This document shows positions 1 to 58,787 of a DNA stretch of 64,000 bases, piece after piece (within the stretch, counting starts at the first letter, position 1; every line of letters begins with the position of its first letter). Origin of the DNA: Candidatus Aenigmatarchaeota archaeon (GTDB taxonomy: Archaea > Aenigmatarchaeota > Aenigmatarchaeia > GW2011-AR5); NCBI GenBank assembly GCA_016184005.1, contig JACPDL010000001.1, positions 829 through 64,828 on the forward strand, in the 5' to 3' direction. The position numbers and the translations under genes were made by a program. Below the pieces are notes generated by a model that saw only the letters and a program-made list of their open reading frames with translations, was not told the DNA's origin and did no database searches.

Positions 1-191
1 AATTTAGTACCGAACTTTGTTAATTCATTGAATTCCTTCTTTGGATCCGGAATGGCGATCTTTTTCATTAACACAAGGTCGCCAAGTCTGCTTACCACAA
101 GCCTGCTGCCTTCCTCAATCCCAAGATCGTTTCTTATCTCCTGGGGTATGACAACCTGTCCCTTGGACGTTACTTTTGTTACTTCTGACAT
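1..191 (-). CDS. AbrB/SpoVT-family DNA-binding protein (antitoxin-like); 3' end runs off the window
   Basis: My own translation from the ATG at 191 gives MSEVTKVTSKGQVVIPQEIRNDLGIEEGSRLVV... The SKGQVxIPxxIR motif is typical of the AbrB/MazE fold. GAGGTGA lies just upstream of the ATG. It is absent from the ORF track because no stop codon falls inside the window. Confidence 0.6.
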   Translation of the reverse strand, partial: MSEVTKVTSKGQVVIPQEIRNDLGIEEGSRLVVSRLGDLVLMKKIAIPDPKKEFNELTKFGTK

Positions 192-381
192 GACATCACC
201 TCTCAGTAAGAATGTATTACTTTCCAACTTTATAAGGTTTACGGTAATCGGCTAGCAGGGAACGCGACAAAGAAACTGAAAAGGGCAGGCGACGTTCACC
301 ACGGCGCTGTCAGCGCCGGCGCCTTATAAACAGCCCAAACACCGCAATATTTAAATACTTTCCGGCTTTAACTATTAAACA

Positions 382-909
382 GTGATAATCATGCAGTACA
401 AATCAAGGTGGGCAAGAGGCCTTGTGGCTTCCCTCGGACTGATGGCAGCCGCGCACGCGCCCGCATACGCGCAGGGCGTTGCGGCAAAGGACAGCGGCAA
501 GGACGGGCCCGACGGCAGGCAGTACAGGGTCATCGCAATCCATGCCAACGGCAACGCCAACGGCTCGAAGCCGCTGATCGTCCTCGACAGGCTCGACGAC
601 GGCATAAGAATAGAGCCTTTCCTGTCCCCATGGCAGTACACGGAATCCACAGGCTCAGCAGCCGTGGACGCGGCAGGCTTCAAGGGCTACACAGCAGAGA
701 AGATCATGGACAGGGGCAGCGTAATAGGCTACGTGCTGGAGCCGCAGGACAGCCCGGGCGCAGGCAGGATACTCTACTCCTTCGACAACAGCAGGAACGG
801 CAAGGCCGTCATGCGAGTCTCCCAGGAAAGCCTGACCCAAGCCGGAGGAGCAGGTGGGGCTGGGGGAGATGGCGGAGCCGGAGGCGGCGGGGCTGGCGGC
901 GGGTATTAA
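382..909 (+). CDS. Secreted hypothetical protein with a Gly/Ala-rich C-terminal tail, in a GC-rich block
   Basis: It has a signal-peptide-like N-terminus (RGLVASLGLMAAAHAPAYAQG) and a tail GGAGGAGGDGGAGGGGAGGGY. An alternative start is at 391. GC content is far above the window average, and overlapping same-length ORFs in other frames are the expected GC artefacts. Confidence 0.5.
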   Translation: MIIMQYKSRWARGLVASLGLMAAAHAPAYAQGVAAKDSGKDGPDGRQYRVIAIHANGNANGSKPLIVLDRLDDGIRIEPFLSPWQYTESTGSAAVDAAGFKGYTAEKIMDRGSVIGYVLEPQDSPGAGRILYSFDNSRNGKAVMRVSQESLTQAGGAGGAGGDGGAGGGGAGGGY

Positions 910-918
910 CTTCTCATT

Positions 919-3726
919 CTAACAGCCAGTTGCTATAAATGAATTAGTTATTGATACACTATTCAAATTATTATCTGTGCCACTGAGTGTTTCTATAAAA
1001 TTTCTAGGTTGACAGTATGTCCAAAATGCGCCTGGGATTATTACATCACCACTCGCAGGAACAGATACTGAAATACTCAAGCAATCGGTTGTTTCTGGGA
1101 ATCCTCCACATGCTGCCCAATACCTACATTTGCTAGTTAATGTTACACCAACGTTGTTTGTTTCTTGTACTCTAGTTGAATAATAGTATGCTGTAGCACC
1201 TTCTGGTGGTGTGATAGGCGACCCGCCACAAACCGCTGAACAGCTTGGTCCGCACGCCAAGCTTGCAAGCAGCACAGCCATCTTCACGCAGGTGTCGCCC
1301 GTCTGGGCATAATTCGGCGGGCAGCCGCACACGCTGGCTTTGTCGATCAGCGCGCCGGCCTGGCAGAACTTCGGCTTGGTCAGGCTGCATGCGCCGCTGG
1401 CTGTGCCGTCGGGGCATGACGGCGAGCAGGGCGTGCTTGTTTCCGTATAGTATCCTGACGGGCAGGAGGGGCTTAAGGAGCATGAAACTGTCTGGGCGGG
1501 CTTCGCGTAGCAGTGGCAGTTCCACTTGTCCGGGATGAAGAAGAAGACCCAGTGGCAGGCGGAGCCTTCAACGCTCTTCACGTTCCCCGCGCCGTATACG
1601 GGGTCATACGCATTCTCGCAGTCGTCGTCGCAGCTGGAAACGCACATCGTCTCGATGTACTGCCAGTCATTGCTCCTGCATGTCAGCGCGTTCCATCCGG
1701 GGAGCACGCAGTTGTCTCCGCTCGCCGTGTAGCCCGCAGGGCAGCCGCAGGTGCCTGCCCTGCTTACAAGGCCGCCGCCCTCGCAGCGCAGGGGTTTCGT
1801 TGCGCTGCACGCGCCCTCAAGCGTGCCGTCCGAGCACACGACCACGCAGCTATCACCACTCACCGCATATCCCGAAGGGCATCCGCATATGCTGGCCCTG
1901 TTGACGAGGCTCCCGCTCAGGCAGTACTTGGGCTTCGTTATGCTGCATGAGCCGCTGGCTGTGCCGTCGGGGCATGTTGGCACTATGCAGCTGTCTCCGC
2001 TCGCGACGTATCCCGAAGGGCATCCGCACACGCTGGCTTTGTCAACAAGCGCCCCGTCCTGACAGTACTTAGGCTTCGTTGCGCTGCATGAACTGTATGC
2101 AGTGCCGTCGTTGCATGTCGGAACCACAGGGGTGCAGCTGTCTCCGTTCACTACATAGCCAAAGGGGCATCCGCATATGCTGGCCCTGTTGACGAGGCTC
2201 CCGCTCAGGCAGTACTTCGGCTTCGTCACGCTGCATGCACTGTACGGCGTGCCGTCAGCGCATGTCGGCAGAACGCAGCTGTCTCCGCTCGCGACGTATC
2301 CCGAAGGGCATCCGCACACGCTGGCTTTGTCAACAAGCGCGCCGGCATCGCAGTACTTGGGCTTGCTCGTGCTGCAGCTGCTGTACGCAGTCCCGTCAGC
2401 GCATGTTCCGGCGACGTTCACCACGGCGCTGTCAACGGCGACGCCTCCCGGCCCTGTGCACGTCAGCGTGTAGGTCTGTGTTGCGGTTATCGGCGGTGTA
2501 AGCTCTGATCCTGACAGGCTTTTCGCGCCGGACCACGAACCGGATGCAGAGCAGGAATCCGCGTTTGATGATGTCCACGAAAGCGTTGCCTGCGAGCCGT
2601 AGGCAATAGTCGGGCTCTCCATGCCGTTGGCCTTTATGTCGACAACCGGCAGGACGCACGGCCCGCAGTCGGCCGTGCACGTCGAGCAGGTTTCTCCAAG
2701 CTCGCATCCGTTGGCTCCGCACGTCGTGCAGGTGGCGTTGGCTATGACGTCACCGGAGCTGCATGTCGGCACCGATGCGCAGATGGTCTGGAAATCCTGC
2801 GTGCATGTAGTTTCGAATATTAGAGGAAATGTGGGAACGCATGATATTGTCGTGTAACCCGGCGGGCACGGCGGGCAGGTGAGAATCTGCGTCACGGTTG
2901 TCGTTTCCCTGCACGTGAGCCGGGTGGTTGTAGGCAGGCTAGCGATGGCCACAGTGACATTGTCGCTTGCCGTCCCGCCTATTCCTGTGCACGAAAGATA
3001 GAACGTTTTTTCCGATGTTACCGGCGGCGTAATCTCCGTGCCAGTGAGCGGCTTCGAGCCGGACCAGCCGCCGGATGCCGTGCATGTGCTTACGTTGGAA
3101 GACGTCCACGACAGCTCGACAGACAGGCCCGAGCGTATCACGAGGCTGTCGTTGCCGTCACCCTTCAGGTCCACAGCAGGCAGGGGGCACGTGCCGCAGT
3201 CAGCCGCGCAGGTAGCGCATGTTTCGCCGGCCGCAGCCTGGCAGAACATATCACCGCATACTACGGACCGGCAGCTTCCGTCTGCCGCGCAAACCTGCCC
3301 CAGCGGGCAGCTGCATGTGGTGCATTTATTGACAAGCGTGCCGGCCTGGCAGAACTTCGGCTTTGCCGCAGAGCACCTGTCATATGCAGTGCCGTCAGCG
3401 CACGCCGCCGCCACGCTGCCAAGGTCCGACAGGTAGACCCTGTTGTCGCCGGCCAGCAGATGTGAGACAAGCTCGACGTAGGGACTGGTGAGGCCCGCCA
3501 TCGGTATGCCGTATCCTGTGAAGTCGACATCCACATAAGGCTTGTTCACGGCCTGGATTACCTTCTCAGACGCCATCAGGGTTCTCGGCGAGTTGTAAAG
3601 GTTAACGGTTATAATAAACTGGTAAGGCACAGGCTGATCAAGCGGTATTTTTAGGCTGCCCACGATCTGCGCATGGCCAGTCGCAGCAGCAAGCAGAATA
3701 GCGACAATGAAAATTATTTTTTTCAT
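919..3726 (-). CDS. Large secreted cysteine-rich repeat protein (adhesin or surface-protein-like), with two Ig-like domains and at least 7 copies of a ~47-aa six-Cys module
   Basis: The ORF is 919..3750. I prefer the start MKKIIFIVAILLAAATGHAQ (ATG at 3726) because it gives a Sec-type signal. The repeat module is C-x-DGT-x4-CS-x2-KPK-[YF]-C-x2-G-x-L-[VI]-x3-[SGT]-x-CGCP-x-GY-x3-GD-x-C. Two SWTSSN...C.ASG.WSG domains are each preceded by GETC.TC.ADCG.C. Confidence 0.8.
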   Translation of the reverse strand: MKKIIFIVAILLAAATGHAQIVGSLKIPLDQPVPYQFIITVNLYNSPRTLMASEKVIQAVNKPYVDVDFTGYGIPMAGLTSPYVELVSHLLAGDNRVYLSDLGSVAAACADGTAYDRCSAAKPKFCQAGTLVNKCTTCSCPLGQVCAADGSCRSVVCGDMFCQAAAGETCATCAADCGTCPLPAVDLKGDGNDSLVIRSGLSVELSWTSSNVSTCTASGGWSGSKPLTGTEITPPVTSEKTFYLSCTGIGGTASDNVTVAIASLPTTTRLTCRETTTVTQILTCPPCPPGYTTISCVPTFPLIFETTCTQDFQTICASVPTCSSGDVIANATCTTCGANGCELGETCSTCTADCGPCVLPVVDIKANGMESPTIAYGSQATLSWTSSNADSCSASGSWSGAKSLSGSELTPPITATQTYTLTCTGPGGVAVDSAVVNVAGTCADGTAYSSCSTSKPKYCDAGALVDKASVCGCPSGYVASGDSCVLPTCADGTPYSACSVTKPKYCLSGSLVNRASICGCPFGYVVNGDSCTPVVPTCNDGTAYSSCSATKPKYCQDGALVDKASVCGCPSGYVASGDSCIVPTCPDGTASGSCSITKPKYCLSGSLVNRASICGCPSGYAVSGDSCVVVCSDGTLEGACSATKPLRCEGGGLVSRAGTCGCPAGYTASGDNCVLPGWNALTCRSNDWQYIETMCVSSCDDDCENAYDPVYGAGNVKSVEGSACHWVFFFIPDKWNCHCYAKPAQTVSCSLSPSCPSGYYTETSTPCSPSCPDGTASGACSLTKPKFCQAGALIDKASVCGCPPNYAQTGDTCVKMAVLLASLACGPSCSAVCGGSPITPPEGATAYYYSTRVQETNNVGVTLTSKCRYWAACGGFPETTDCLSISVSVPASGDVIIPGAFWTYCQPRNFIETLSGTDNNLNSVSITNSFIATGC
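1693..2403 (-). repeat. Tandem array of five Cys modules inside the large CDS, with an A-B-A-B structure of about 288-nt period
   Basis: The segments at about 1881-1940 and 2169-2228, and at about 1997-2050 and 2285-2338, are near-identical at the nucleotide level. Further diverged copies lie at 3262..3402 and 1282..1416. Confidence 0.85.
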
Positions 3727-3796
3727 GCTGAAAATAATTATTCCCGCCACCAGATAAAGATTTTTGGCTCATTAGAACCCGTCATTATATTTAATA

Positions 3797-4171
3797 TTAT
3801 TCTACCGAAGGCCTTATTCCTTCCCAGACCTGGTATCTGTCCGACTGCAGCAGAATAAGATCAAAAGTTACAGTCTTGCTGGTACAGTCATTAATTGTGT
3901 AAAAAACATCAACTGCGTAGCCAATCCTGCCTTTTGAAAGCTGGAAGAAATAAATGTAATCATTCAGGTTTTCCGAAAGTTCCTCGCAAGTGTTCCCCGA
4001 CAACTGGATTGTCCTTTGCAGCCCCTGCTTCAGGTTTGCAAAATGATAGTCTTCGTTATAGCTGGACGTGCCTGCCGTATCAACAGCATTGAAGCTGCGC
4101 AGGTTAGAGGAAACGGCAAAGACCGAGAATGCGATGAATATAGCAGATATTGCAAACCATTGCCCTTTCAT
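3797..4171 (-). CDS. Small type IV pilin-like protein (class III signal peptide candidate)
   Basis: The N-terminus MKG|QWFAISAIFIAFSVFAVSS has K-G followed by a hydrophobic helix, as in archaeal prepilins. The gene sits directly upstream of, and co-oriented with, the large Cys-rich protein. Confidence 0.45.
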   Translation of the reverse strand: MKGQWFAISAIFIAFSVFAVSSNLRSFNAVDTAGTSSYNEDYHFANLKQGLQRTIQLSGNTCEELSENLNDYIYFFQLSKGRIGYAVDVFYTINDCTSKTVTFDLILLQSDRYQVWEGIRPSVE

Positions 4172-6244: not shown

Positions 6245-6246
6245 AA

Positions 6247-6296
6247 ACAAATCCCTTTCTTTTATGAAAAGAAAGGTCTTTGTAAACCCCAAAGAA
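6247..6296. repeat. Two-hairpin element filling the MazG-Pop5 spacer; same family as the tRNA-Pro(CGG) intron
   Basis: ACAAATCCCTTTCTTTTatgAAAAGAAAGGTCTTTGTAAACCCCAAAGAA shares identical blocks of 15, 15 and 12 nt with 52981..53026. Confidence 0.8.
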
Positions 6297-6301
6297 AAGA
6301 T

Positions 6302-6625
6302 TTACAGGACCTTATCTTCTTTTTTACCATTATATTTTTCAATTATTTTCTTATGCGTCAATTCAAAGGCCTCTTCGGCATCTACATCTAATTGATTTGC
6401 TAATCGGAGGATCCCGAAAAGCAAGTCCCCTACACCATCTTCAAATATCTCCTTCCTTTCTTCGAGCATCTTTTTCCTCTCGTTCAAGTTTTTATATCTC
6501 AGATACCTGCTCATTTCTATAAGCTCTTCATGAAGATGATCAAACTTATCCATATTGGGCTCATCTTTCCAGTCGTTCTTCTTCGCAAATTCCTTAACGA
6601 TTTCTTGAGCATCTTTGATTTTCAT
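6302..6625 (-). CDS. MazG-like nucleotide pyrophosphohydrolase
   Basis: It is a small all-helical protein with the EELIEM...ED..GDLL acidic motifs typical of MazG/NTP-PPase. Confidence 0.7.
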   Translation of the reverse strand: MKIKDAQEIVKEFAKKNDWKDEPNMDKFDHLHEELIEMSRYLRYKNLNERKKMLEERKEIFEDGVGDLLFGILRLANQLDVDAEEAFELTHKKIIEKYNGKKEDKVL

Positions 6626-6656: not shown

Positions 6657-6751
6657 CTTGAATAGGAGAGGAGGTTGATACGTGCAGAAAGCTTCGCTTT
6701 CTGACGTGCCAGAAAAGCTATGCTTCTCTGAGCAAGGATGTTCTCGACTTA
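6657..6751 (-). repeat. Family-2 composite hairpin element, long copy
   Basis: The minus strand reads AAGTCGAGAACATCCTT + 2 hairpins (CAGAGAAGC..GCTTtTCTG, CAGAAAGCgaaGCTTTCTG) + GTATCAACCTCCTCTCCTATTCAAG. It is near-identical to 38855..38943. Confidence 0.85.
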
Positions 6752-6764
6752 TCAATATTTTAAT

Positions 6765-6809
6765 TAGGAGAGGAGGTTGATAAGGATGAGAACCTAGGTT
6801 CTCGACTTA
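6765..6809 (-). repeat. Family-2 element, minimal copy, beginning with the Rpp30 stop codon
   Basis: The minus strand reads TAAGTCGAGAACCTAGGTTCTCATCCTTATCAACCTCCTCTCCTA. The TAA is the stop codon of the 6807..7517 CDS. Confidence 0.85.
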
Positions 6810-7517
6810 TTCATCAACTATTGTTACTCCTTCCCATCTTTTGCCTTCGAGCTTTTCCCTGTTTTGCTTGGCTATTCCTTCAGGGACGGCGGAAACAGAA
6901 TCTATTGCCTTCCCGAGATCCATGCCCAGTATATTCCCCAGTCCAGCCATGTCACGGGGAGACCGCATGTTCCATTTCGTAACAGCGCCCGAGGCTATCA
7001 CAACGCTTGCATTATAATTCTTGCACAGCATTACATTTTTTTTCATAGCTGCAATTATATGGACGCGCTGCTTCTTGTAGGACTCGAGGACTTCCCGGAA
7101 ATTCACCTCTATTGCAACGCTGTTTTCAGCTGCAGCTTTTGCGCATATATGGTCAAGCCCGGAATCTTTCCTGCCAAGCTCGGGATGGCAAAGTATATCG
7201 ACCAGCTGGTTTTCGCATGCGGCGCGGTTGACATCATAATCGCCACCATGAACCATCAGCACTTCCGCGCTATTTCTCACCTTCGTAGCAAGGATATTGA
7301 GCTCTTCCGGATTTTTCGGTTTAAGCATAACCGCATTAACAATGTCCATGCTTGCATCAGCTGTTTCCAGATCTTTCTTTGGCAAACGCGTGCCGTCGTA
7401 ATAACGAACCATGCCTATTCCATTAAGACCCAGCTTGGTTGCGAAGTCTATCGTCTCTTCGGGCGTTGATTCGCCTATGGATAGTGTTGTATGCACGTGC
7501 AGGTCGTAAAATGCCAT
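6807..7517 (-). CDS. rnp3: RNase P protein component 3 (Rpp30, PHP/TIM-like)
   Basis: It starts MAFYDLHVHTTLS..., a PHP-type motif. I trimmed the track ORF (to 7718) because its N-terminal 67 aa translate the hairpin array. Confidence 0.75.
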   Translation of the reverse strand: MAFYDLHVHTTLSIGESTPEETIDFATKLGLNGIGMVRYYDGTRLPKKDLETADASMDIVNAVMLKPKNPEELNILATKVRNSAEVLMVHGGDYDVNRAACENQLVDILCHPELGRKDSGLDHICAKAAAENSVAIEVNFREVLESYKKQRVHIIAAMKKNVMLCKNYNASVVIASGAVTKWNMRSPRDMAGLGNILGMDLGKAIDSVSAVPEGIAKQNREKLEGKRWEGVTIVDE

Positions 7518-7653
7518 GATAACCAATAAAATTTTGAGATGAAAGCTTAAAAGAGCCTTTTCTTTTAAGAAAAGAAAACCCTCGGGAAATCTGCAAAGAG
7601 CAAAGCTCTTTGGGATGCCAGAGAAGCTTTGCTTCTCTGAGCAAGAAAAACGA
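7518..7653. repeat. Array of three or more short hairpin modules between L15e and Rpp30
   Basis: The modules are CCTTTTCTTTTaagAAAAGAAAAcc, CTGCAAAGAGCaaaGCTCTTTGgGAT and CCAGAGAAGCtttGCTTCTCTGaGC. Confidence 0.8.
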
Positions 7654-8148: not shown

Positions 8149-8168
8149 AAAAATCACATAATAAATCG

Positions 8169-8207
8169 GAACCCATAATATTAAATTCAATTAATCGGTT
8201 CCGATAC
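8169..8207 (-). promoter_or_regulatory. Family-1 box, copy a: probable promoter of the L15e operon
   Basis: The minus strand reads GTATCGGAACCGATTAATTGAATTTAATATTATGGGTTC. The A/T-rich TATA-like core lies about 35 nt upstream of the L15e ATG. The box is flanked by the 9-bp inverted repeat ATCGGAACC/GGTTCCGAT. Confidence 0.5.
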
Positions 8208-8260
8208 GAAGCGGAATCGAAGATTCCGCTTGTACACAAAAACCAATGTTTTTGTTGTAC
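8208..8260. repeat. Two mini-hairpin modules, each bounded by TAC, interrupting the family-1 box
   Basis: The sequence is ccgaTAC[gaaGCGGAATCgaaGATTCCGCttgTAC][aCAAAAACcaatGTTTTTGttgTAC]ctccg. Uninterrupted copies read ccgaTACctccg. Confidence 0.75.
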
Positions 8261-8272
8261 CTCCGAATATTA

Positions 8273-8312
8273 GAACCCATCATGTTATATTTAATTTAAC
8301 CGGTTCCAATAC
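8273..8312 (-). repeat. Family-1 box, copy b (tandem duplicate about 104 nt upstream of copy a)
   Basis: GAACCCATCATGTTATATTTAATTTAACCGGTTCCAATAC, followed by the same GAAGCGGAATCGAAGATTCC module. Confidence 0.7.
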
Positions 8313-8467
8313 GAAGCGGAATCGAAGATTCCATGTGCACGCACAAATCTTTGACTTGTACTGTACTTCCGAAGATTTCCAATATTTCCAGCAGAAGCAT
8401 TCTCATATTGTAAAGCTTATAAAGTTAAGCATGAATAAAATCTATTCAACAGATTGAGGTATGACTT

Positions 8468-8968: not shown

Positions 8969-8978
8969 ACCAGCATCA

Positions 8979-9022
8979 GAACCCATAATATTAAATTCAA
9001 TTAATCGGTTCCGATACCTCCG
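8979..9022. repeat. Family-1 box, copy c
   Basis: GAACCCATAATATTAAATTCAATTAATCGGTTCCGATACCTCCG starts 10 nt after the stop codon of 8741..8968. Confidence 0.8.
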
Positions 9023-9361: not shown

Positions 9362-10702
9362 TCACTTCTTTTTCCTTCTCATCTGCCTGTCCATCTTATC
9401 CACCTTTTTGCTCATCCTCTTTATAAGTTTTAGCGTTTCTGCCTGTTTCTTGGATATTTTTGCAGCGTCCTTCTTCTGCTTGTCTATCGCTTTCTGGACT
9501 TTCTTGACCCTGCCGTCGACCTGATCGATGTCATCATACAGCACGTCTCTTAGGTTTTGCAAATCACCAACTTTCCTCATTGTTACATTCAGTATGTCAT
9601 CTGTTTTTTTGTCAACTTCTTCTGCAGTCTCCTTGAGCTTTATCGAACTGGTTTCAAGCAGTTGGATGTTTTTTTCCATCATTTCTTTGGAGACGCCTAT
9701 GTCAGAAAGCATTATGCTCAGGTACTGGTTCCTTTCAAACACATCGTTTCTCAGGTCCCTCAGGTTATCCTGCAATGTTCCAAGCAGAACTGCGCTCTGT
9801 TCTATAGCAGCCCGTGAGGCGCCATAGCTTTCAACCATATTGCCCAAGCCTGCAGATTTCTCTTCCAGCAGCGGTGCCAGCTGTGACAGCGTTTCCATGG
9901 CTGAGGCAAGCGTCATGTTCCTCTTCTCTATATCTTCAACGCTTTCCTTGAGCCTTATCGAAGATGATTCGAGGCGGCTTGCACTTATGTCTGTCATGTC
10001 GCGCGAGAGAGCAATCTCGGAAATAAGCAATTTCATATCATCGTTCTTTTGCAGGACATCAGAGGCGATCCTGTCGAGCTTTTCCTGCAAAGAAGCGAGT
10101 GAAGAGGAGCTTTTCCGGATATTCTCGTCGGCTTCTGCAATGCCTTCAGCAGCCGCGCCGAAATTTTTTGTGCGCTCTTCCATCATTTCTGCCAGTGAAG
10201 AGATGTCCTTTGCCATAGCAAGCATTATTTCATTTCTCTGCTCAGTAACCTTGGACACGTAGTTTATCCGCGGCATGAGTTCCTTTAGCTCGGTTTCGGT
10301 TTCCCTGAATGCAGAGGTTGCGTAATCAATTTCTGTTGTTTTCGCCCTGAAATTGTTAAGAGCGCCTTCAAGGCGGGAAATAGTAAGTGCCATGTCCTCT
10401 GAATGATTCTCAGCTTCCTTGAGCCTGTTTTCAAGAGCAGGCATGGAATCCAGCTTTTCCAGCCGCTGGTTCTGGAGCTCAAGTACATTCTTGATGTCTA
10501 CAAGGCTGTCCCTGACCGCACTAAGCATATCAAGCGTTGGCGAAGCCTCAGAAACCTTATCCTCAGAAAGCACTTTCTGAGATGTCAAAGAATCCAGGAT
10601 TCTTTGGGCATCCAGGAGCACGCGCACATATTCCTCCTCAACAGCTGTGATGTCAGAAGGCAGTTCTTCAGTCAAGCGCGGCCTTGTCGGCAATTCTTCC
10701 AT
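9362..10702 (-). CDS. Coiled-coil protein with an internal ~100-aa duplication and a K-rich tail
   Basis: It is heptad-rich throughout. The two repeats share ...L.LQ(E/D).L...(R).DV..(K/R)N....S(R/K)(D/E)M...LE(S/T)SSI(R/K)LKE(S/T).E(D/E).(E/D)K. Confidence 0.7.
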   Translation of the reverse strand: MEELPTRPRLTEELPSDITAVEEEYVRVLLDAQRILDSLTSQKVLSEDKVSEASPTLDMLSAVRDSLVDIKNVLELQNQRLEKLDSMPALENRLKEAENHSEDMALTISRLEGALNNFRAKTTEIDYATSAFRETETELKELMPRINYVSKVTEQRNEIMLAMAKDISSLAEMMEERTKNFGAAAEGIAEADENIRKSSSSLASLQEKLDRIASDVLQKNDDMKLLISEIALSRDMTDISASRLESSSIRLKESVEDIEKRNMTLASAMETLSQLAPLLEEKSAGLGNMVESYGASRAAIEQSAVLLGTLQDNLRDLRNDVFERNQYLSIMLSDIGVSKEMMEKNIQLLETSSIKLKETAEEVDKKTDDILNVTMRKVGDLQNLRDVLYDDIDQVDGRVKKVQKAIDKQKKDAAKISKKQAETLKLIKRMSKKVDKMDRQMRRKKK

Positions 10703-11344: not shown

Positions 11345-11413
11345 CTTTTTCCAAGGTTTTTCTTCAAGCGACTAGACGCACAAAGTGCGTCATTTCCTTC
11401 GAGAAAAAGCTTT
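11345..11413 (-). terminator. 3' element after argS: AAAAAGCTTTTT palindrome, a GACGCACnnnGTGCGTC hairpin, and the shared motif GAAAAACCTTGGAAAAAGA
   Basis: It starts at the argS stop codon. The flanking motifs recur at 63140..63176 after the LamG gene stop, but without the inserted hairpin. Confidence 0.5.
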
Positions 11414-14436: not shown

Positions 14437-15597
14437 TCATCTCCCTGCCTTTATCGATATAATGTCGCCGTTTTTGAGTCTGTGGTCAGAAGCGATACTT
14501 TTCCTTGTCCTGGCATCTAAAGCCGAGATGAATTTCTTTCCGATGTCTTCATGAACTTTGTATGCAAGATCAAGCGCCGTGGAGCCGTTTCTTAGCAGCA
14601 AGGCGTCTGGCAGAACATCACCCTGCTTATTTGAAAGCTTGTGCTCGTTTTCGACCGGGTAGACGACTATCATATCAAGCAAGCCAAAAACAGTCTTGTT
14701 TATTGCTTCCTGCACGCCTGTGGAACCAAAAACAGAAAGGACATGTGTTGTAATGAATTCCAGGGCCTTCATCCGCTTTTCGTCTATATTCTGAACAATC
14801 TCAAAACTATTCTCTCCGGGCATGTAATTTATAGCGCCTATTTTAGCAGCTTTTCTCAGGGCCAGTTCAGCTTGCGCTGAACACGGGACGATATTGTATT
14901 TCTCCTTGAGGCTCTGATAAATTTCATTAGCGCCTTCGATATCTATCTTATTCCCGGCAATCAGCGCAGGTTTGGATTTTTCCATGAGCAATCTCAGGAA
15001 TCTTCTGAATTCTTCATCAGAAGAATCCGGCTTGAGGTTTACGCCTTTGATCAATTCTTCTATAAGCTGAAAATTCACTTTTAACCCGGATAACTGCTTC
15101 TGAACCATTGCTGTAAAATCTGCATGTTTGGTAAAACCGCGCTTTAATACATCAAGCAGCCACAACTCAATTTCTTCCTGAAAAAAAAGTATATCGCTTT
15201 CCGGGCTGTGCGTTCCAGGCGGCACCTGATTGCCATTAATGTCTGTCGAGCCGGAAATGTCTACAACATGAATGATTGCATCTGCTTCCATGATGTCGGA
15301 AAGAAACTGGTTTCCAAGGCCTTTGCCAAGATGTGCCCCAGGAACAAGTCCTGCTATATCAACAAGTTTGACAGGTATCAGCCTTGTGCTGTCTATGCAT
15401 TTAGAATTCTGCGGATTGCATTTCACTTTCAGTTCTTTGCAGGGGCAGACTGCTCTGACAAATGTCACGCCACGGTTCGGTTTTATTGTCGTGAACACAC
15501 GGTTGCTTATTTCTGCATCGACAAGCGTAGATGCGCTGAAGAAGCTTGTTTTCCCGACATTGGTCTTTCCGCAGACTGCTATTTCCATGATTACCAT
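14437..15597 (-). CDS. OBG/YchF-Drg family GTPase with a C-terminal TGS domain
   Basis: G1 is GKTNVGKTS, G3 is DIAGLV, G4 is GNKID, and the C-terminus DGDIISIKAGR is TGS-like. An alternative start is at 15588 (MEIAVCG). Confidence 0.85.
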   Translation of the reverse strand: MVIMEIAVCGKTNVGKTSFFSASTLVDAEISNRVFTTIKPNRGVTFVRAVCPCKELKVKCNPQNSKCIDSTRLIPVKLVDIAGLVPGAHLGKGLGNQFLSDIMEADAIIHVVDISGSTDINGNQVPPGTHSPESDILFFQEEIELWLLDVLKRGFTKHADFTAMVQKQLSGLKVNFQLIEELIKGVNLKPDSSDEEFRRFLRLLMEKSKPALIAGNKIDIEGANEIYQSLKEKYNIVPCSAQAELALRKAAKIGAINYMPGENSFEIVQNIDEKRMKALEFITTHVLSVFGSTGVQEAINKTVFGLLDMIVVYPVENEHKLSNKQGDVLPDALLLRNGSTALDLAYKVHEDIGKKFISALDARTRKSIASDHRLKNGDIISIKAGR

Positions 15598-15617
15598 CTT
15601 TTTGTAATATTCTTAAT

Positions 15618-15663
15618 AGGGAAAAGAGATTAGAAAGAGAAAAACCGTAGGTTTGTTCTCTTC
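15618..15663 (-). terminator. Family-4 hairpin with a T-rich tract, directly after the NUDIX stop codon
   Basis: The minus strand reads AAGAGAACAAACCTACGGTTTTTCTCTTTCTAATCTCTTTTCCCT. The same element is at 18909 and 20676. Confidence 0.65.
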
Positions 15664-16068
15664 TTACCATCCAAGAATATCTTTCAATATTTTCCTGTGA
15701 TCAGCGGCAAGTTTTGCTGGTAGTTTCTCCAACGGGAAGAATCTTGCATCTGTTGCATCGTCCATGCCTTTAATGCCTGCAGGATTTTTTGCCCTGGAGA
15801 TGAAAACAAGGGAAATGAGATGCCCTCTTGGATCGCGTTTAGGGTTGCCGTAGGCAAAAACATTCTTTTTGTCTTTCAGTGTTATGTTCAGGCCTGTTTC
15901 TTCCTTGGCTTCGCGTATTGCTGCCCTGTAAGGTTCCTCGCCGTATTCGATGAAACCGCCAGGAAGTGCCCACATGCCTTTGAACGGCTGTTTTTTTCTT
16001 TTTACCAGCGCTATGCTGTTTTCGTGCAGTATAATCACGTCTACTACCGGGAGTGGATTTTTATACAT
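15664..16068 (-). CDS. NUDIX hydrolase
   Basis: Nudix box GGFIEYGEEPYRAAIREAKEETGL. Confidence 0.85.
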   Translation of the reverse strand: MYKNPLPVVDVIILHENSIALVKRKKQPFKGMWALPGGFIEYGEEPYRAAIREAKEETGLNITLKDKKNVFAYGNPKRDPRGHLISLVFISRAKNPAGIKGMDDATDARFFPLEKLPAKLAADHRKILKDILGW

Positions 16069-16568: not shown

Positions 16569-16672
16569 GTCGAGAACCTAGGTTCTCATCCTTATGCTCA
16601 AAGACATCGTAAATGTCTTTGGCATCTCAGAAAGCTTTGCTTTCTGAAGATCAACCTCCTCTCCTATTCAAG
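16566..16672 (+). repeat. Family-2 composite element beginning with the stop codon of 16113..16568
   Basis: TAAGTCGAGAACCTAGGTTCTCATCCTTAT + CAAAGACAtcgtaaaTGTCTTTG + CTCAGAAAGCtttGCTTTCTGAag + ATCAACCTCCTCTCCTATTCAAG. Confidence 0.85.
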
Positions 16673-16675
16673 AAT

Positions 16676-16864
16676 ATTATGATATGCTCTTAATACTCCA
16701 CGACTAAAGTCGTGGGTTTCTGAGAGCATGTCATCCCAACATTGTTTATGTAATATCTGCTGTCTAATCCTAAATCAAGCAAAGCTTGATTTGGATTTCT
16801 CAAAGGATTTTGAAGAAATCCTTTGCAGAAAAGACAGCAGTTTTAAGCAATGTTGCGGATAAAG
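16676..16864 (-). repeat. Family-3 double nested hairpin, expanded copy, following the stop codon of 16885..17286
   Basis: The minus strand reads TTTATCCGCAACATTGCTTAAAACTGCTGTCT[64-nt insert]TAGACAGCAG...ATAAACAATGTTGGGATGACATGCTCTCAGAAACCCACGACTTTAGTCGTGGAGTATTAAGAGCATATCAT. Confidence 0.85.
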
Positions 16865-18572: not shown

Positions 18573-18908
18573 ATGGTATTCGAGATCATAGCTGCCGCTG
18601 TGCTTATAGCATTCGGCCTGCTTTCGATCTATTTCTCCGTGAGCGAAGGCGCAAGCGACGAGAAGATGCTTGCAATCCTTGCCATAGGCACTGCCGCACT
18701 GCTGCTTGGGTTATGGATACTTATAACAAAACTGACGCTTATGTTGCTGCTCCGGAAGCTTGGCGGGCTGCTGCTGACGATTGTAGGCGGCTTTTTGGTG
18801 TTTGGCTTTCCCGATATCGGCGACTACCAGAGGCCCGGGATGAGCAAGGCCGGCATATTCATAGGCTTGATAATCCTGATAATAGGCTTGTATTATCTAT
18901 TCTTCTGA
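18573..18908 (+). CDS. Small integral membrane protein (about 4 TM helices)
   Basis: It contains four hydrophobic stretches. It is the first gene of the plus-strand arm of the divergent cluster. Confidence 0.55.
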   Translation: MVFEIIAAAVLIAFGLLSIYFSVSEGASDEKMLAILAIGTAALLLGLWILITKLTLMLLLRKLGGLLLTIVGGFLVFGFPDIGDYQRPGMSKAGIFIGLIILIIGLYYLFF

Positions 18909-18957
18909 AGAAGAGAACAAACCTACGGTTTTTCTCTTTCTAATCTCTTTTCCCTTT
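18909..18957 (+). terminator. Family-4 hairpin with a T-rich tract
   Basis: AGAAGAGAACAAACCTACGGTTTTTCTCTTTCTAATCTCTTTTCCCTTTT begins 1 nt after the stop codon. Confidence 0.65.
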
Positions 18958-19019: not shown

Positions 19020-20675
19020 ATGCCAGAGAAAAAGAAGTTCATACTAGAAGATTCTAATTTTGCCAGGGACAGGATAACGAGCGAAATAAAAGAGGGAAAA
19101 ATAAGGGACTTCAAAAAACAAATAGGCCATGTTATGATACTTCCGCCCTTTGAGGCCTATATAAGACTGGACGCAACGGGCCCGCCCGGTTTCACGTCTG
19201 GCATGCTGTATTCACTGTCATTCCAGGTGAGAAAATGGGAATACAACATCGTAAAAGCCGACGAATGGATCGAGGTCAACCCGGTACACGCGCAGTATTA
19301 CCAGCTTACGCACAGGCAGAAGGAAGAACTGGAAGGAAGGATAAAAAGCGGCCTTGCTTCAACTTCGCAATCTGTCGCAGACCTTGAGCTGCTCATGCAC
19401 GACGAGAGGAAATACAGGGAGTTCCTGCACTACTTCGGCTATCGCACTTTCAGAGAGATTGCTGAAGAAGCCAAGAAAAAGGATGATGCAGAGTCGCCTG
19501 ACTATGACTTTATCGATGTAAGCGAAGACCCGCAGAAGGCAAAGAAGCACGCTGATGAGCACTCCCTGAAGGCAGTGTTCATAGACCAGGTGGATGCCCA
19601 CACAGGCGAGGGCATAGCAATGAGGAACATAGTAGCCAGATGGCCCACGCTCATAACCGATTTCATGAAGATGAGCGACGAAGACATTGATGTCAACAAG
19701 GTAATGAAGAAGATGGATGTATCAAAGGCGGAAGCTGTAGTTCTGGTAACCAAAAACAAGCTGTATCAGGAATGGAAGAGGCTCTTCGGCGTGGAGATAA
19801 AATCACGGTACAACAGGATAAAGGAACTTGTGAAAAGCAGGAAAAAATCAGTAGAAGAGTACAGGAACTGGCTGAAGCCCACAATTGCAAGGCACAGGAT
19901 GGTGCAAGAAGGTCTTGCAAGCGAGGGGGGGCGGGCAGGATTAAGCACTGCTTTTATCAAGCATGAAAGCCAGGCACTTGCACTGTCAGAGATTGTAATG
20001 TGGATCTGGAAAGACACAGGACCCGCCACTGAATTCTACAAAGGCGGCACAGAGGAGCTGGCAAAACTGATGGCAGGCGTCGAGAGCGGCAAATCAAGAC
20101 TTTCACCATATGACAACTGGACAAAGAAAAACCTTATATTTCACCCGGAACAGGGGCTTGTGGTAAAATATCCCTGGATCACCGATGAGTGGGTTAAAAA
20201 ACAGCTGCCGACTTTCTATCCTCCTGTAAACCGGTGGATGTTTCCCCACAAGCCTTATTACGCCTTTTTCATCATAACCATGGAAAGGGCTAATATACGG
20301 ATGCCTACAGGGGCAGAGCTTGAGGACGGTACATTTGACGTAAATGCAGTATTCCTGAGCCAGAACGCGCTTTTCGTGAAGCTTCTTGAACTCAGGGCGA
20401 AGCAGGAAGAGATGAACAGGTATGTTGATGAGCTTATAGGCACAGGCCCCGCGAACGTTGAAGGCAAGGCCCTGAAGTTCGACGATAAAAACTACATTGA
20501 GCCTTTCAAAAAATTCTTCGAGTGGTTCAGCCTTGACTTTGCCTTCAGGAAGGGCGGGCCTTATGAAAGGGACTTCGAAGACAGGTACACGAAATATTAT
20601 GCCCCGGGCGTCATGGACAAATACAGGCAGATAACCGGTTTCATAAAGACCAAGATGGGCCTGGGCGTGGCCTAA
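19020..20675 (+). CDS. Uncharacterised 551-aa protein
   Basis: A long clean ORF in which I recognise no catalytic or binding motif. The central region is charged and helical. Confidence 0.7.
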   Translation: MPEKKKFILEDSNFARDRITSEIKEGKIRDFKKQIGHVMILPPFEAYIRLDATGPPGFTSGMLYSLSFQVRKWEYNIVKADEWIEVNPVHAQYYQLTHRQKEELEGRIKSGLASTSQSVADLELLMHDERKYREFLHYFGYRTFREIAEEAKKKDDAESPDYDFIDVSEDPQKAKKHADEHSLKAVFIDQVDAHTGEGIAMRNIVARWPTLITDFMKMSDEDIDVNKVMKKMDVSKAEAVVLVTKNKLYQEWKRLFGVEIKSRYNRIKELVKSRKKSVEEYRNWLKPTIARHRMVQEGLASEGGRAGLSTAFIKHESQALALSEIVMWIWKDTGPATEFYKGGTEELAKLMAGVESGKSRLSPYDNWTKKNLIFHPEQGLVVKYPWITDEWVKKQLPTFYPPVNRWMFPHKPYYAFFIITMERANIRMPTGAELEDGTFDVNAVFLSQNALFVKLLELRAKQEEMNRYVDELIGTGPANVEGKALKFDDKNYIEPFKKFFEWFSLDFAFRKGGPYERDFEDRYTKYYAPGVMDKYRQITGFIKTKMGLGVA

Positions 20676-20722
20676 GAGGAGAACAAACCTACGGTTTTTC
20701 TCCTTCTAACCTCTTTTCCCTC
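20676..20722 (+). terminator. Family-4 hairpin with a T-rich tract
   Basis: GAGGAGAACAAACCTACGGTTTTTCTCCTTCTAACCTCTTTTCCCTC begins immediately after the stop codon. Confidence 0.65.
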
Positions 20723-23221: not shown

Positions 23222-23695
23222 CTAGCTAAATCTCTTCCTCAAAGCAAGCTCCACATTCTTTGGCACAAAGCCGCTGACATTCGCCTTGTTTCTTGCAAGC
23301 TCTTTTACAGTGGTTGAGCTGAGATAGAAATATTCCTTGTCTGTAAGGATGAATATGGTTTCTGTTTCAGGCTCAAGCTTCTTGTTTGCAATAGCCATCT
23401 GGAACTCATAATCGAAATCGGATACTGCGCGCAGGCCCCGCACAACAAGACTTGTTTTCTTCTTCCTCAGGTAATCCACAAGCAGGCCGGAGAACGGTTC
23501 AACTTCCACCCGCATGCCCTTCGTGGCACCTTTTATCATATCTGCGCGCTCCTTTGAAGAAAACAGGCATTCTTTATTCCCGTTTTCGAGCACAGCTATC
23601 ACAAGTTTGTCGAATATCTTCAGCGCCCGCTCTATCACGTCCAGATGGCCGTTGGTTATCGGGTCGAAGCTTCCCGGATAAACTGCTGTCTTCAT
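23222..23695 (-). CDS. coaD: Phosphopantetheine adenylyltransferase, bacterial CoaD type
   Basis: MKTAVYPGSFDPITNGHLDVIERA...VRGLRAVSDFDYE is the canonical bacterial PPAT sequence. The start is trimmed to the ATG at 23695. Confidence 0.9.
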   Translation of the reverse strand: MKTAVYPGSFDPITNGHLDVIERALKIFDKLVIAVLENGNKECLFSSKERADMIKGATKGMRVEVEPFSGLLVDYLRKKKTSLVVRGLRAVSDFDYEFQMAIANKKLEPETETIFILTDKEYFYLSSTTVKELARNKANVSGFVPKNVELALRKRFS

Positions 23696-23777
23696 AATGA
23701 TCACTGATTTTACAAATCCTTATAAAATGAACCGGCTATTGCTAAGAGATATTAAAATAAACAGGTAAATTAATAGC

Positions 23778-24143
23778 ATGACAAATCATCTTACCTTCGA
23801 TAACATAATAGAATTAAACCGAGTTCTTGTAAATCAATTTGGAGATGGCCCTGCCGGAGTTAAGGATGAAGGCACCCTGGATTTTATACTCGACAAGGCA
23901 TCTATGTCTGAGGATTTTAATAGAGAAGCTGCTGTTCTGCTCTATGAAATAAACACGAAGCATCCTTTCTGGGGTGCCAACAAAAGAACCGCCTTTGAGG
24001 CTTCCAAAATCTTTTTATTAGCGAACGGCATTAAATTAAAAGCAGGATTTGAAGAGGCTGTAGAGTTTGTCAATGATATGGCACAGGGTAAGGTAAATTA
24101 TCAGCAAACCCTAAGATGGCTCAAAGAACATGCGGTGAAATAA
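23778..24143 (+). CDS. doc: Doc (death-on-curing) family Fic-fold toxin
   Basis: The motif HPFWGANKRTA matches the Doc signature HxFx(D/N)(A/G)NKR, and the ~120-aa size is typical. Confidence 0.85.
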   Translation: MTNHLTFDNIIELNRVLVNQFGDGPAGVKDEGTLDFILDKASMSEDFNREAAVLLYEINTKHPFWGANKRTAFEASKIFLLANGIKLKAGFEEAVEFVNDMAQGKVNYQQTLRWLKEHAVK

Positions 24144-24230
24144 ATGACTGAGAAAAGATTTCATGAATTGATGAAAAAATCTATCAAGGAAGATGCGAAA
24201 CTCCTTAAAGCTCTTGCTGGGCAGAAGTAG
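24144..24230 (+). CDS. Possible 28-aa ORF abutting the doc stop codon
   Basis: The ATG starts 1 nt after the doc TAA. It encodes MTEKRFHELMKKSIKEDAKLLKALAGQK, a single amphipathic helix. It is too short to call with confidence. Confidence 0.2.
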   Translation: MTEKRFHELMKKSIKEDAKLLKALAGQK

Positions 24231-27398: not shown

Positions 27399-27713
27399 AT
27401 GCACAGCTTTGCTGAAGAGAATTTCATGACAGCGGTCAAAATCGGCGGCAGGCGCTACGAATTTCCGTCTGATCTGGTAATTGGACAGTACGGGTTGACA
27501 GAGATGGTCGGTGCCTGTGAAGGTAATTTCAAATACCAGCTTGCTCTAATCAGCGGAGATGGGACGCAAGATATTTTGCCTGTCGGATTAAGAGAAAAGC
27601 CAACAGACGCAGAGATATGGAAAACGGTAACTTATGCAAATCGAGACCTTGAAAGAAGGCTGGCCAAATTGCCAAAAGCAAGGAAAGACCTTGTTGCGAG
27701 GGGAGCAGAATGA
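27399..27713 (+). CDS. Hypothetical protein
   Basis: A 104-aa ORF that overlaps the next ORF by 4 nt (ATGA). Confidence 0.4.
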   Translation: MHSFAEENFMTAVKIGGRRYEFPSDLVIGQYGLTEMVGACEGNFKYQLALISGDGTQDILPVGLREKPTDAEIWKTVTYANRDLERRLAKLPKARKDLVARGAE

Positions 27714-28204: not shown

Positions 28205-28208
28205 ATCA

Positions 28209-28254
28209 GAACCCAATCATATTACATTTAATTTAATCGGTTCCGATGCCTCCG
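28209..28254. repeat. Family-1 box, copy d
   Basis: GAACCCAATCATATTACATTTAATTTAATCGGTTCCGATGCCTCCG starts 4 nt after the stop codon of 28019..28204. Confidence 0.8.
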
Positions 28255-28262: not shown

Positions 28263-28387
28263 TTTATCCGCAACATTGTTTAAAACTACCGACTTTAGTC
28301 GGTAGATACTACATAAACAATGTTGGGATCACATCGTTCAACAAACCCACAACTTTAGTTGTGGGTTATATCAAGAACGATATGATT
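28263..28387 (+). repeat. Family-3 double nested hairpin, minimal copy, between convergent genes
   Basis: TTTATCCG-CAACATTGTTTAaaa[CTACCGACtttaGTCGGTAG]atactacaTAAACAATGTTG-gg-ATCACATCGTTCaacaaa[CCCACAACtttaGTTGTGGG]ttatatcaaGAACGATATGAT. Confidence 0.85.
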
Positions 28388-28956: not shown

Positions 28957-28961
28957 AATTA

Positions 28962-29006
28962 GAACCCATCATATTATATTTAATTTAATCGGTTCCGATA
29001 CCTCCG
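28962..29006 (-). promoter_or_regulatory. Family-1 box, copy e: probable promoter of rps3ae (leaderless or very short leader)
   Basis: The minus strand reads CGGAGGTATCGGAACCGATTAAATTAAATATAATATGATGGGTTC. The TATA-like TTAAATATAAT lies about 25 nt upstream of the ATG at 28956. Confidence 0.5.
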
Positions 29007-30748: not shown

Positions 30749-30960
30749 TTATCCGCAACATTGCTTAAAACTGCTGTCTTTAGACAGCAGATACAAGGAA
30801 GAACAGAGTTCTTCCTGTACAGGTGAAACTTGTTTCACCATGTATTACATAAACAATGTTGGGATGACATGCTCTCAGAAACCCACGACTTTTCTGCAAA
30901 GGACTTCAGAAAAGTCCTTTTCCTCGAATTAGTCGTGGGAGTATTAAGAGCATATCATGA
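30749..30960 (+). repeat. Family-3 double nested hairpin, expanded copy, starting right after the lig stop codon
   Basis: It has the same frame as 28263..28387 plus three extra hairpin modules: two TAC-bounded modules after GATAC, and one inside the CTTTAG loop of hairpin 2. Confidence 0.85.
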
Positions 30961-38943: not shown

Positions 38944-39056
38944 AATAAAAATATTACTTAAGAAAAGATTGCAAGAAGAAATGTAAAGAAACGGTCTTTG
39001 AATTTTCTTTTTGGACATACAAAGACTTTTTCTTTCCTAAAGAAAAAGGATTTGTT

Positions 39057-52649: not shown

Positions 52650-52703
52650 TCTGTTCTGTTGGTTAGGCTGATAAAAGCTGCTAAAATTATCAGCATAAAT
52701 CTT

Positions 52704-58772: not shown

Positions 58773-58787
58773 TAGACACCTATTCAT

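Follow-up and report, generated by a model that had tools for sequence, protein, structure and literature searches.

In peel-and-paste transposition, a guide tetranucleotide beside a hairpin selects both the target and the cleavage sites. Rickettsia palindromic elements (RPEs), which are bacterial and about 100–150 nt long, insert in frame in protein genes and are tolerated there as an extra peptide. The SDR4–6 small dispersed repeats (SDRs) of Nostocaceae were reportedly treated by Elhai et al. in 2008 (Genome Res 18:1484), and mitochondrial double-hairpin elements are said to have been described in Allomyces by Paquin et al. in 2000. Here we report a 53-nt double-hairpin cassette that shares traits with these systems and lies at positions 8208–8260 of a 64,000-nt stretch of contig JACPDL010000001.1 (assembly GCA_016184005.1; Candidatus Aenigmatarchaeota archaeon), the whole stretch being called the window. 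We read it as one copy of a set of miniature non-autonomous mobile double-hairpin cassettes that would be moved as single-stranded DNA by a trans-acting enzyme, a reading to which we give a probability of about one half; that the cassettes are mobile at all we regard as quite probable. The REP, BIME and REPIN sequences, which are associated with RAYT transposases (PMC3116915, PMC3733652, PMC3337134), resemble the hairpins described here in being extragenic palindromes of 20–40 nt, single or arrayed, that lie mostly downstream of genes or between convergent genes and are sometimes intragenic, that are thought to be mobilised in trans, and whose mobile unit is the doublet; the REPIN/RAYT side of the mechanistic comparison is supported by PMC3337134 and PMC3733652. 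The SDRs, which are cited in PMC5861425, are reportedly likewise mobile units of ~21–27 nt with hairpin potential, nested insertions and orthologous empty sites, for which a short palindrome (HIP1) has been proposed as insertion site and no transposase is known. Mitochondrial hairpin elements, including yeast GC clusters (GC42, PMC4478555) and sponge repetitive hairpin-forming elements (RHEs, PMC2800124), resemble the cassettes as hairpins or double hairpins of ~40–80 nt with the same 2–3 nt on both sides (AG/TAG in yeast), single or in tandem arrays, spreading in lineage-specific bursts with close relatives lacking them, by a mechanism that is not known.

The cassette interrupts a family-1 box, one of several kinds of repeated scaffold element in the window, and positions 8200–8265 read CCGATAC-GAAGCGGAATCgaaGATTCCGCTTGTAC-ACAAAAACcaatGTTTTTGTTGTAC-CTCCG. 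The proximal family-1 box (8165–8207, plus strand) has the stem ATCGGAACC/GGTTCCGAT around a 23-nt AT-rich, TATA-like loop and ends in GATAC; it stands 17 nt upstream of the start codon of L15e, which is on the minus strand. The last three letters of the box are the TAC of the cassette site (8205–8207, plus strand), which pairs with GTA at 8232–8234. The cassette itself, DHE-3 (8208–8260, plus strand), consists of G, the perfect hairpin hp1 (8209–8231; 10-bp stem, 3-nt loop), a central GTAC (8232–8235), the perfect hairpin hp2 (8236–8255; 8-bp stem, 4-nt loop), T and a terminal GTAC (8257–8260). It is followed by CTCCG (8261–8265, plus strand), the right-hand part of the box, which adjoins GATAC in uninterrupted copies. 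An earlier note on this DNA had described TAC-bounded hairpins in this family-1 box and in a family-3 element (30792–30848); both sequences are as it described them, and only its minimal family-3 copy, given as '28296..', is a few bases off (about 28305–28318).

Relatives for comparison were found in several ways. A genome-collection scan with the pattern TTWAAYCGGTTCCRATRC, which proved too degenerate (118 matches, mostly chance bacterial ones), identified contigs L043 and L110 of the sister metagenome-assembled genome RIFCSPHIGHO2_01_FULL_AR5_44_11. A metagenome scan with a 19-mer of the box added only further contigs of the sister genome (L123–L132) together with chance matches; L149 is an additional sister contig, and further contigs were reached via homologs of three window proteins. 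Eight strain contigs (L138–L145) share an identical 446-aa protein, and the seven that span a 2.2-kb comparison region (L138–L144) show 0–13 mutual differences there and differ from the window by ~3.9%. L135 is also a strain contig, with an L15e 98% identical to that of the window; in L146, another relative, the 446-aa protein has 95% identity to its window counterpart; and L136, L151 and L137 are outgroups with ~80% amino-acid identity to the window.

The 53 nt are present in the window and in L135, L138, L139, L141, L142 and L143, whereas an alignment of the spacer between an 83-aa gene and L15e shows that L140 lacks exactly 8208–8260 (...CCGGTTCCGATAC|CTCCGAATAT...) and has the junction GATAC|CTCCG (CCGGTTCCGATAC|CTCCG). 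The earlier note had predicted an empty/filled polymorphism among strains, and it exists at exact TAC boundaries, with one empty contig against six filled contigs and the window. What is gained or lost, however, is the 53-nt hairpin pair, and not single hairpins from four independent insertions. Neither box nor hairpins are found upstream of L15e in L136 and L137, and the four family-1 boxes that L137 carries elsewhere, two of them in tandem, are all uninterrupted; the cassette is therefore derived, which bears out the proposal that the hairpins were inserted into the box. L146 has a single box with two degenerate hairpins at this site. These comparisons place the entry of the cassette at the TAC of a family-1 box earlier than the divergence of the window from L146; box plus cassette were duplicated afterwards. 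The empty state of L140 is most parsimoniously a later precise loss, because L140 is nested in a filled sister population and shares derived single-nucleotide polymorphisms with the filled L141, and because the window, 3.9% diverged, is filled.

Three box subtypes carry this cassette at an identical TAC position: the proximal box, the distal box, and a box at an unrelated locus of the sister genome (L110, L123, L130). Between the proximal window copy and that of L110, hp2 and both GTAC linkers are identical, and all eight differences among the 53 positions fall in hp1, including the base 5' of its stem. Six of them make up three compensated base pairs (AAGCGGAATC/GATTCCGCTT versus ACATGGAATC/GATTCCATGT); the other two affect the loop and the bulged base 5' of the stem. 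The distal tandem copy of box plus cassette (8269–8375, plus strand) has a degenerate hp2' and a mismatched, hybrid hp1*, whose 5' arm is that of the proximal copy and whose 3' arm is that of L110. Its end (8362–8371) reads ...TTGTAC-TGTAC-TTCCG, with a doubled TGTAC linker that is also doubled in L146.

Several other origins were considered. Gene conversion of L140 by an uninterrupted box is unsupported, as the L140 box equals that of L141 and its right-flank sequence matches none of the other box copies compared. Restriction cutting and ligation at GTAC was rejected since the box site is ATAC and not GTAC, and fold-back or hairpin-capped repair copying the flank was rejected since the hairpin arms are unrelated to the flanks. 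Assembly artefact was also rejected, the same sequences being present in independent ENA, JGI, NCBI and Logan assemblies.

We define four cassette families, DHE-1 to DHE-4, with units of 51–57 nt. DHE-1 has the form CYTCAGAAAG..-GATGY-CAAAG..CTTTG-RGCAT. Its 56-nt copy at 16594–16649 (minus strand; CTTCAGAAAGC..GATGC..CAAAG..GAGCAT) is inserted at GGTTGAT|AAGGAT of a family-2 element, and the orthologous family-2 element of outgroup L136 is uninterrupted (GGTTGAT|AAGGAA). The 51-nt copy at 10561–10611 (plus strand) lies in frame, as 17 antisense codons, in a conserved coiled-coil gene (9362–10702, minus strand); these extra codons, AQRILDSLTSQKVLSED, are missing from the L136 ortholog. The in-gene copy is present in L138 and L146 with decaying stems, and perfect stems are thus not restored automatically. 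A third copy is found in the sister population, in a family-4 box upstream of Rpp14, where the window is empty. All three copies start with CYTCAG, end with RGCAT and are preceded by ..AT (TTAT, TGAT and AGAT).

DHE-2 has the form TCTT-GGGAGAAGCgaaGCTTCTCC-GAGATT-CCAAAAAGCtgcGCTTTTTG-AGAA and is present at four loci of the sister population, with 0–2 mismatches over 51 nt. Two of these loci have clean empty sites in the window, at 5124/5 and 25597/8; at the latter the sister's 57-nt insert (L043 2888–2944) is in frame and gives a PQQ beta-propeller gene 19 additional codons after Met-Glu. DHE-4 (51 nt; 30795–30845, plus strand) follows the GATAC of a family-3 element and comprises hp3 (30796–30816), GTAC, hp4 (30822–30839) and ATGTAT; it reads AAGGAAGAACagaGTTCTTCCTGTAC-AGGTGAAACttGTTTCACCATGTAT between GATAC and TACATAAAC, with stems of 9 and 8 bp. 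Every cassette folds into a pair of neighbouring hairpins (z-scores −5.5 to −7.1 relative to shuffled sequences). Larger arrays are also present. A four-hairpin array A-B-C-D (52698–52808, plus strand; linkers GAGATC/GAGATT/AGAATTC) is the parent type of the sister's A-D cassette DHE-2, and a three-hairpin array B-C-D (58786–58867, plus strand) lies between a type II secretion system (T2SS) ATPase gene and a KaiC-like gene, where the sister has A''-B and the outgroup nothing; by this comparison arrays change by single modules at repeated linkers as well. Two-hairpin inserts are also found in TTTA loops of family-3 hairpins. Cassettes are nested both in hairpin loops and immediately 3' of hairpin feet, as in GGTTCCG-ATAC| (family-1) and GTCGGTAG-ATAC| (family-3), and this nesting fits a single-stranded target.

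These data show that cassettes entered pre-existing elements (the family-1 box, family-2, family-3 and hairpin loops) as well as coding DNA, and for some copies, including the in-frame 17-codon gene insertion, they also show the direction of the change. They likewise establish near-identical copies at unrelated loci, orthologous empty sites, the precise loss at the focal site, constant cassette ends within a family and a site preference beside hairpin feet and in loops.

The cassettes have a common layout: [1–2 nt]-hairpin alpha-[short central linker]-hairpin beta-[0–2 nt]-[reverse complement of linker]. The central linker can pair with two partners, the final 3 nt of the left flank and the 3' end of the cassette itself. 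In DHE-3 the left flank is TAC, and the central linker and 3' terminus are both GTAC; in DHE-1 they are ATC or AT, GATGC and GCAT(C), respectively; and in DHE-2, read in reverse orientation, left flank and 3' terminus are both AAGA. Central linkers are GTAC at the focal site and GATGC or GAGATT in other cassette families. Flank and terminus are identical, and so resemble a target duplication, because the central linker pairs with both; the TAC repeat, which the earlier note had taken for a target duplication, does not require one, as the central GTAC pairs with the left-flank TAC and with the terminal GTAC. At nearly every junction with a verified empty site the motif shared by flank and terminus is 2–4 nt long, compared with ~0.3 nt expected by chance. 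GATAC precedes DHE-3 in three box subtypes and DHE-4 in family-3, which makes four sites. TAC is nevertheless not the general target that had been suggested, as elsewhere in this genome cassettes have AT/ATC, TCTT/AAGA or ACGTG at their boundaries.

Hairpins are abundant across the window. It contains 38 perfect hairpins (stem at least 8 bp, loop 2–7 nt), compared with 6.3 ± 2.4 (maximum 12) in 100 dinucleotide shuffles, and 32 of the 38 lie in non-coding DNA, which makes up 7.5 kb or 12% of the window. The flanking TAC pairs with GTA to form an outer helix that lengthens each stem by 3–4 bp past a 1–2-nt bulge, and GTAC, itself palindromic, shuts one hairpin and opens the next. Such an outer helix is present in 24 of 35 hairpins, compared with 6.9 ± 2.3 when flanks are permuted; the general architecture of the window hairpins is a perfect inner stem joined through a bulge to an outer helix. 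Tabulating flanks in the window, we found that 7 of 35 non-overlapping hairpins, where ~1 is expected, have a TAC no more than 5 nt from the stem on its 5' side; this enrichment is confined to three array sites, and TAC is for that reason not a genome-wide target. The linkers among the 35 hairpins are GTAC, ACGTG, GATGC/GCATC and GAGATT/GAGAAT. The hairpins are spread over several repeat families, including arrays with GAGATT/GAGAAT linkers, each of which combines a conserved scaffold with hairpins in varying number. The four focal hairpins (hp1–hp4) had been called unrelated; they are not wholly so, for all four share purine-rich 5' arms, and the stem base CARA...TYTG is common to many other window hairpins.

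The mechanism we propose is that the cassettes move as single-stranded DNA and that an enzyme supplied in trans, encoded outside the window, would cut and rejoin them, recognising the hairpin feet and the pairing between linker and target. The nearest model is peel-and-paste by the Y1-HUH TnpA of IS200/IS605 or by RAYT enzymes, and we assign the enzyme to such an IS200/IS605 TnpA or RAYT-like class only tentatively, by analogy. The short motif on the 5' side of a cassette always matches the cassette's own terminus (TAC...TAC); no further duplication arises, and the cassette can leave precisely. Stems would be free to vary while pairing persists, since only copies that fold would go on propagating. 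Family-3, with hairpins close to both of its ends and TTAT as its strict target, could also be moved by the same enzyme.

Compared with PATEs (non-autonomous derivatives of IS200/IS605) and IS200/IS605 elements, the cassettes similarly have hairpins at both ends (within 1–5 nt of the cassette ends) and no terminal inverted repeats, appear to insert 3' of a short specific motif without a real target duplication, and prefer what would be single-stranded targets (loops and hairpin feet). They also share precise excision that restores the site, as in L140, although slippage could give the same product, and a guide-like short sequence next to the hairpin foot, complementary to the target or cleavage site; the cassettes would in this way resemble the IS608 mechanism. 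In contrast to PATEs, which are hundreds of nt long, the cassettes measure 51–57 nt, their motif is 2–4 nt and varies between families, the guide would lie 3' of the left hairpin and not 5', and neither the 64-kb window nor the related contigs yielded a TnpA or TnpB. Unlike REP, BIME and REPIN sequences, none of the 35 window hairpins has a GTAG or CGTC tag in its flanks; within a cassette the two hairpins (hp1/hp2, hp3/hp4) are unrelated and in tandem, not an inverted pair of one REP; the stems are hypervariable and do not form one homogeneous high-copy family; the host is an archaeon; and no RAYT was found in the window or related contigs. The SDRs differ in being cyanobacterial, in having unrelated sequences, and in forming single units without a two-hairpin, shared-linker cassette. 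The mitochondrial elements differ in belonging to organelle genomes and in having no sequence relationship to the cassettes, and the sponge elements have conserved stems and variable loops, the reverse of the conserved linkers and variable stems seen here. RPEs are like the cassettes in being in-frame palindromic inserts, but they form one sequence family, versus the 51- and 57-nt cassette inserts. Overall, the cassettes fit among the small hairpin mobile repeats (SDRs and mitochondrial GC clusters, double-hairpin elements and RHEs), a behavioural class and not a homologous family: they are hairpin-forming units of less than 100 nt that insert in nested or tandem fashion, have empty counterparts at orthologous sites and encode no protein of their own. 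Literature searches returned no description of such elements in DPANN archaea.

Several observations weigh against movement by a dedicated enzyme. Pfam scans of ~70 open reading frames (ORFs) of the window found no Y1/HUH (PF01797-type), RAYT, TnpB, DDE transposase or integrase domain, which agrees with the earlier note's statement that the window encodes no transposase; the precomputed Pfam tables for genes on the strain, sister and outgroup contigs list none of these domains either, and 10 further ORFs scanned (nine from L130, one from L140) have no transposase-type domain. The targets of IS200/IS605 elements are fixed 4–5-mers, whereas the shared motif here is only 2–4 nt, differs between cassette families, and shrinks to ~1 nt at the DHE-2 site 5124/5. 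We know of no element of ~53 nt that is mobilised by TnpA. Copies of DHE-2 differ by ~3 nt at one end, which fits copy-choice better than site-specific cleavage, and slippage between hairpin-held TAC repeats would explain the loss in L140 equally well. The main rival is an account without any dedicated enzyme. A replisome stalled at a hairpin would switch template at 2–4-nt microhomologies, copy a hairpin array located somewhere else and then return, so making a templated insertion; arrays would be deleted precisely when the short direct repeats at the base of a hairpin mispair by slippage, and quasipalindrome correction would keep stems perfect. We consider this account possible, though on balance doubtful. 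It would accommodate the 2–4 nt of identity between flank and insert end at almost every junction (TAC, AT(C), AAGA), a motif that varies between cassettes and DHE-2 ends that vary between copies, the gain and loss of single modules at linker repeats (B-C-D in the window versus A''-B in the sister), L140 as a precise deletion between TAC repeats, and the missing transposase; the distal hybrid hp1* could furthermore yield both perfect variants if one arm were copied onto the other. Random template switching should however leave variable boundaries, and we found constant ends (CYTCAG...RGCAT three times, and family-3 five times after TTAT), the same TAC struck in three box subtypes and in family-3, and stems in coding DNA that gain mismatches, so that no general perfecting process operates. 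A family-3 copy that is 98% identical across genomes whose genes are ~80% identical likewise argues for transfer and not for local replication error.

The hairpins might instead be functional structural modules, such as stabilisers of RNA 3' ends or untranslated regions, terminator-like or processing signals, or protein-binding DNA hairpins, that spread by local duplication and compensatory divergence, TAC/GTAC being the base of a longer selected stem. Most arrays do lie directly after stop codons or between convergent genes, the hairpins of the L15e–p30 spacer keep their positions in L136 (L15e 81% identical in amino acids) with stems that differ while pairing is kept, stem variation is mostly A/G with compensating T/C and a few G.T intermediates, and the outer-helix-plus-bulge architecture is conserved. 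We nevertheless judge a functional origin unlikely. The focal cassette is upstream of both genes, between two divergent promoters, and for that reason probably outside mature RNA; presence varies among strains less than 1% different; there are in-frame antisense copies inside coding genes and near-identical copies at unrelated loci with clean empty sites; and function addresses maintenance, not arrival or origin. A functional role may still help some arrays to persist. Finally, each hairpin could be a tiny palindromic miniature inverted-repeat transposable element of Tc1/IS630 type that duplicates TA (GA-TA-[C...G]-TA-[C...G]-TA-CCTCCG). The four focal hairpin units can indeed be read as C...G flanked by TA, many hairpins in the genome begin with CA and finish with TG, and the doubled linker of the distal copy, read as TA-CTG-TA (8364–8370), resembles a Tc1-type excision footprint, although it could equally result from linker slippage. 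This account is very improbable: TA flanks occur only at the two GTAC arrays, the junctions of DHE-1, DHE-2, family-2 and family-3 being non-TA, both hairpins come and go together and leave no footprint, units of 23–26 nt are far below known IS630/Tc1 terminal repeats, and no DDE transposase was found in the scanned window ORFs.

If the cassettes are moved by an enzyme in trans, a more far-reaching version, which we put forward as speculation and think rather unlikely, is that in a double hairpin of ~53 nt the 4–6-nt central linker is a built-in guide: by pairing with the target motif and with the 3' end of the cassette it would direct a trans-acting single-strand nuclease/ligase, which may belong to a new family, to its sites of insertion and excision. 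These would then be the smallest self-specifying mobile DNAs so far observed in archaea. A change of linker (GTAC, GATGC, GAGATT) would retarget the cassette, and cassettes together with families 1–4 would rebuild promoters, untranslated regions and even protein sequences in DPANN genomes. Such a linker-guided system, if true, would be a minimal natural programmable single-strand DNA insertion, with an enzyme worth finding; the replication-error account, if true, would mean that hairpins can spread through a genome without any transposase. DPANN genomes are very small and streamlined, yet this lineage has at least six families of miniature hairpin elements, which differ within stretches of about 9 kb between strains more than 99% identical and between sister species ~96% identical. 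Ribosomal-protein genes receive promoter-like boxes from these elements, overlapping genes are split by them, conserved proteins gain 17–19 amino acids, and metagenome assemblies break at their sites.

The scaffold elements that host the cassettes fall into several families. Family-1 has a 9-bp stem, an AT-rich TATA-like loop and a GATAC-CTCCG end. Uninterrupted boxes lie on the plus strand at 8975–9022 (GATAC|CTCCG at 9013–9022; this copy shares 98% identity with the proximal box, and in the sister population a truncation removes 24 nt of it), at 28207–28254 (GATGC|CTCCG at 28245–28254), and at 28959–29006 (GATAC|CTCCG at 28997–29006), the last immediately upstream of the start codon of S3Ae on the minus strand. 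The box looks like a portable promoter: its AT-rich loop (TTTAATAT and TTAAATAT in minus-strand reading, from 8165–8207 and 28959–29006) is ~19–29 nt upstream of the L15e and S3Ae start codons, and upstream of L15e it displaces an ancestral TATA-like sequence still present in L136. The tandem boxes of L137 are at 6690–6840, and in the sister's S3Ae box the left half is replaced by a family-4 box.

Family-2 has the form AGGAGAGGAGGTTGAT...AAGGAT-GAGAACCTAGGTTCTC-GACTTATT. Two copies lie side by side at 6664–6811 (plus strand), an expanded one with two hairpins (6664–6750) and a minimal one (6766–6811), and sister strains have zero or one copy at this locus. Family-3 is ~119 nt long, with two nested-hairpin domains whose stems are compensated between copies, and has no Rfam match. 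The minimal element (119 nt; 28268–28386, plus strand) follows TTAT, reads GATAC|TACATAAAC at about 28305–28318, and is absent at the sister's orthologous site. The expanded element (30753–30958, plus strand), which is absent in the sister genome (L124), carries a further single-hairpin insert (30893–30929, plus strand) in the TTTA loop of its domain-2 hairpin. The copy at 16679–16858 (minus strand) follows TTTAT, has a two-hairpin insert (16767–16829) in its domain-1 loop, and is absent in L136 and L146. In all five copies TTAT precedes the element and T[GC]AT ends it, with constant copy ends CC(G/T)CA...ATAT[GC]AT. Family-3 is itself mobile, as these absences from the sister at both window loci and from L136 and L146 at the third show. 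The copy at 34874–34993 (minus strand) is the one that is 98% identical to an outgroup copy (L151 1509–1628) amid genes ~80% identical, a contrast that suggests either recent horizontal spread or very strong constraint.

Family-4 has the form AACAAATCC-hairpin-GTCTTTGT. The box TACAAAGAC-hairpin-GGATTTGTT abuts the start codons of Rpp14 and DUF460 and, in the sister, of S3Ae; family-4 is found at 6246–6300 (minus strand), 38990–39056 (plus strand) and 52978–53025, and in L043 at 6415–6492. In tRNA-Pro(CGG), most of the 56-nt intron consists of this box in reverse complement, and the outgroup intron has the same layout with diverged sequence. A 73-nt insertion at 15591–15671 (minus strand), between NUDIX and GTPase genes that abut in L146 and L136, is flanked by a perfect 8-bp direct repeat (GATGGTAA), the signature of a true target-site duplication, unlike the cassettes; it belongs to a repeat also present at 18908–18955 and 20674–20721. 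A further structured family, GCCTC-GCCGCC/CACCACC...GTGGTGCGTCC-CTTTCGTTTCGC..., follows stop codons in the sister and in L146 (L138 6810–7218; L146 about 11345–11400), where the window (7637–7652, 9360) has nothing. The L15e–p30 spacer is 409 nt in the sister versus 136 nt in the window.

The gene content of the window is archaeal (L15e, S3Ae, RNase P proteins, TFB, ATP-dependent DNA ligase), and L15e homologs place it in the Aenigmarchaeota (DPANN). Searching the whole window against Rfam 15, at the gathering threshold and at E ≤ 1, gave no family beyond the tRNA-Pro(CGG) at 52942–53066, whose 56-nt intron is at the canonical 37/38 position; ARAGORN reported zero tRNAs in the window despite this Rfam match. 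Exact-protein look-ups with window S3Ae and GlmS returned only Logan unitigs of the same strain that end inside repeats, and that with window L15e returned no record. Scans of viral contigs for the box, family-3 and DHE-2 found nothing. A 935-aa ORF (919–3726, minus strand) has no Pfam match, contains 141-nt (47-aa) tandem repeats, and sits in a GC-rich stretch (window 1–4000; 56–57% versus ~44% elsewhere). The Hel308-like helicase (53478–55637, minus strand) has 719 aa in the window versus 1173 aa in the outgroup (L151 2192–5713), where it carries an intein with a LAGLIDADG domain; inteins are also present in several T2SS ATPase homologs from the protein search. The Fic/DOC gene (23778–24143) with its flanks (23688–24277) is missing from the sister genome, and in place of a 104-aa ORF (27399–27713; window 27403–27709) the sister has unrelated sequence of similar length.

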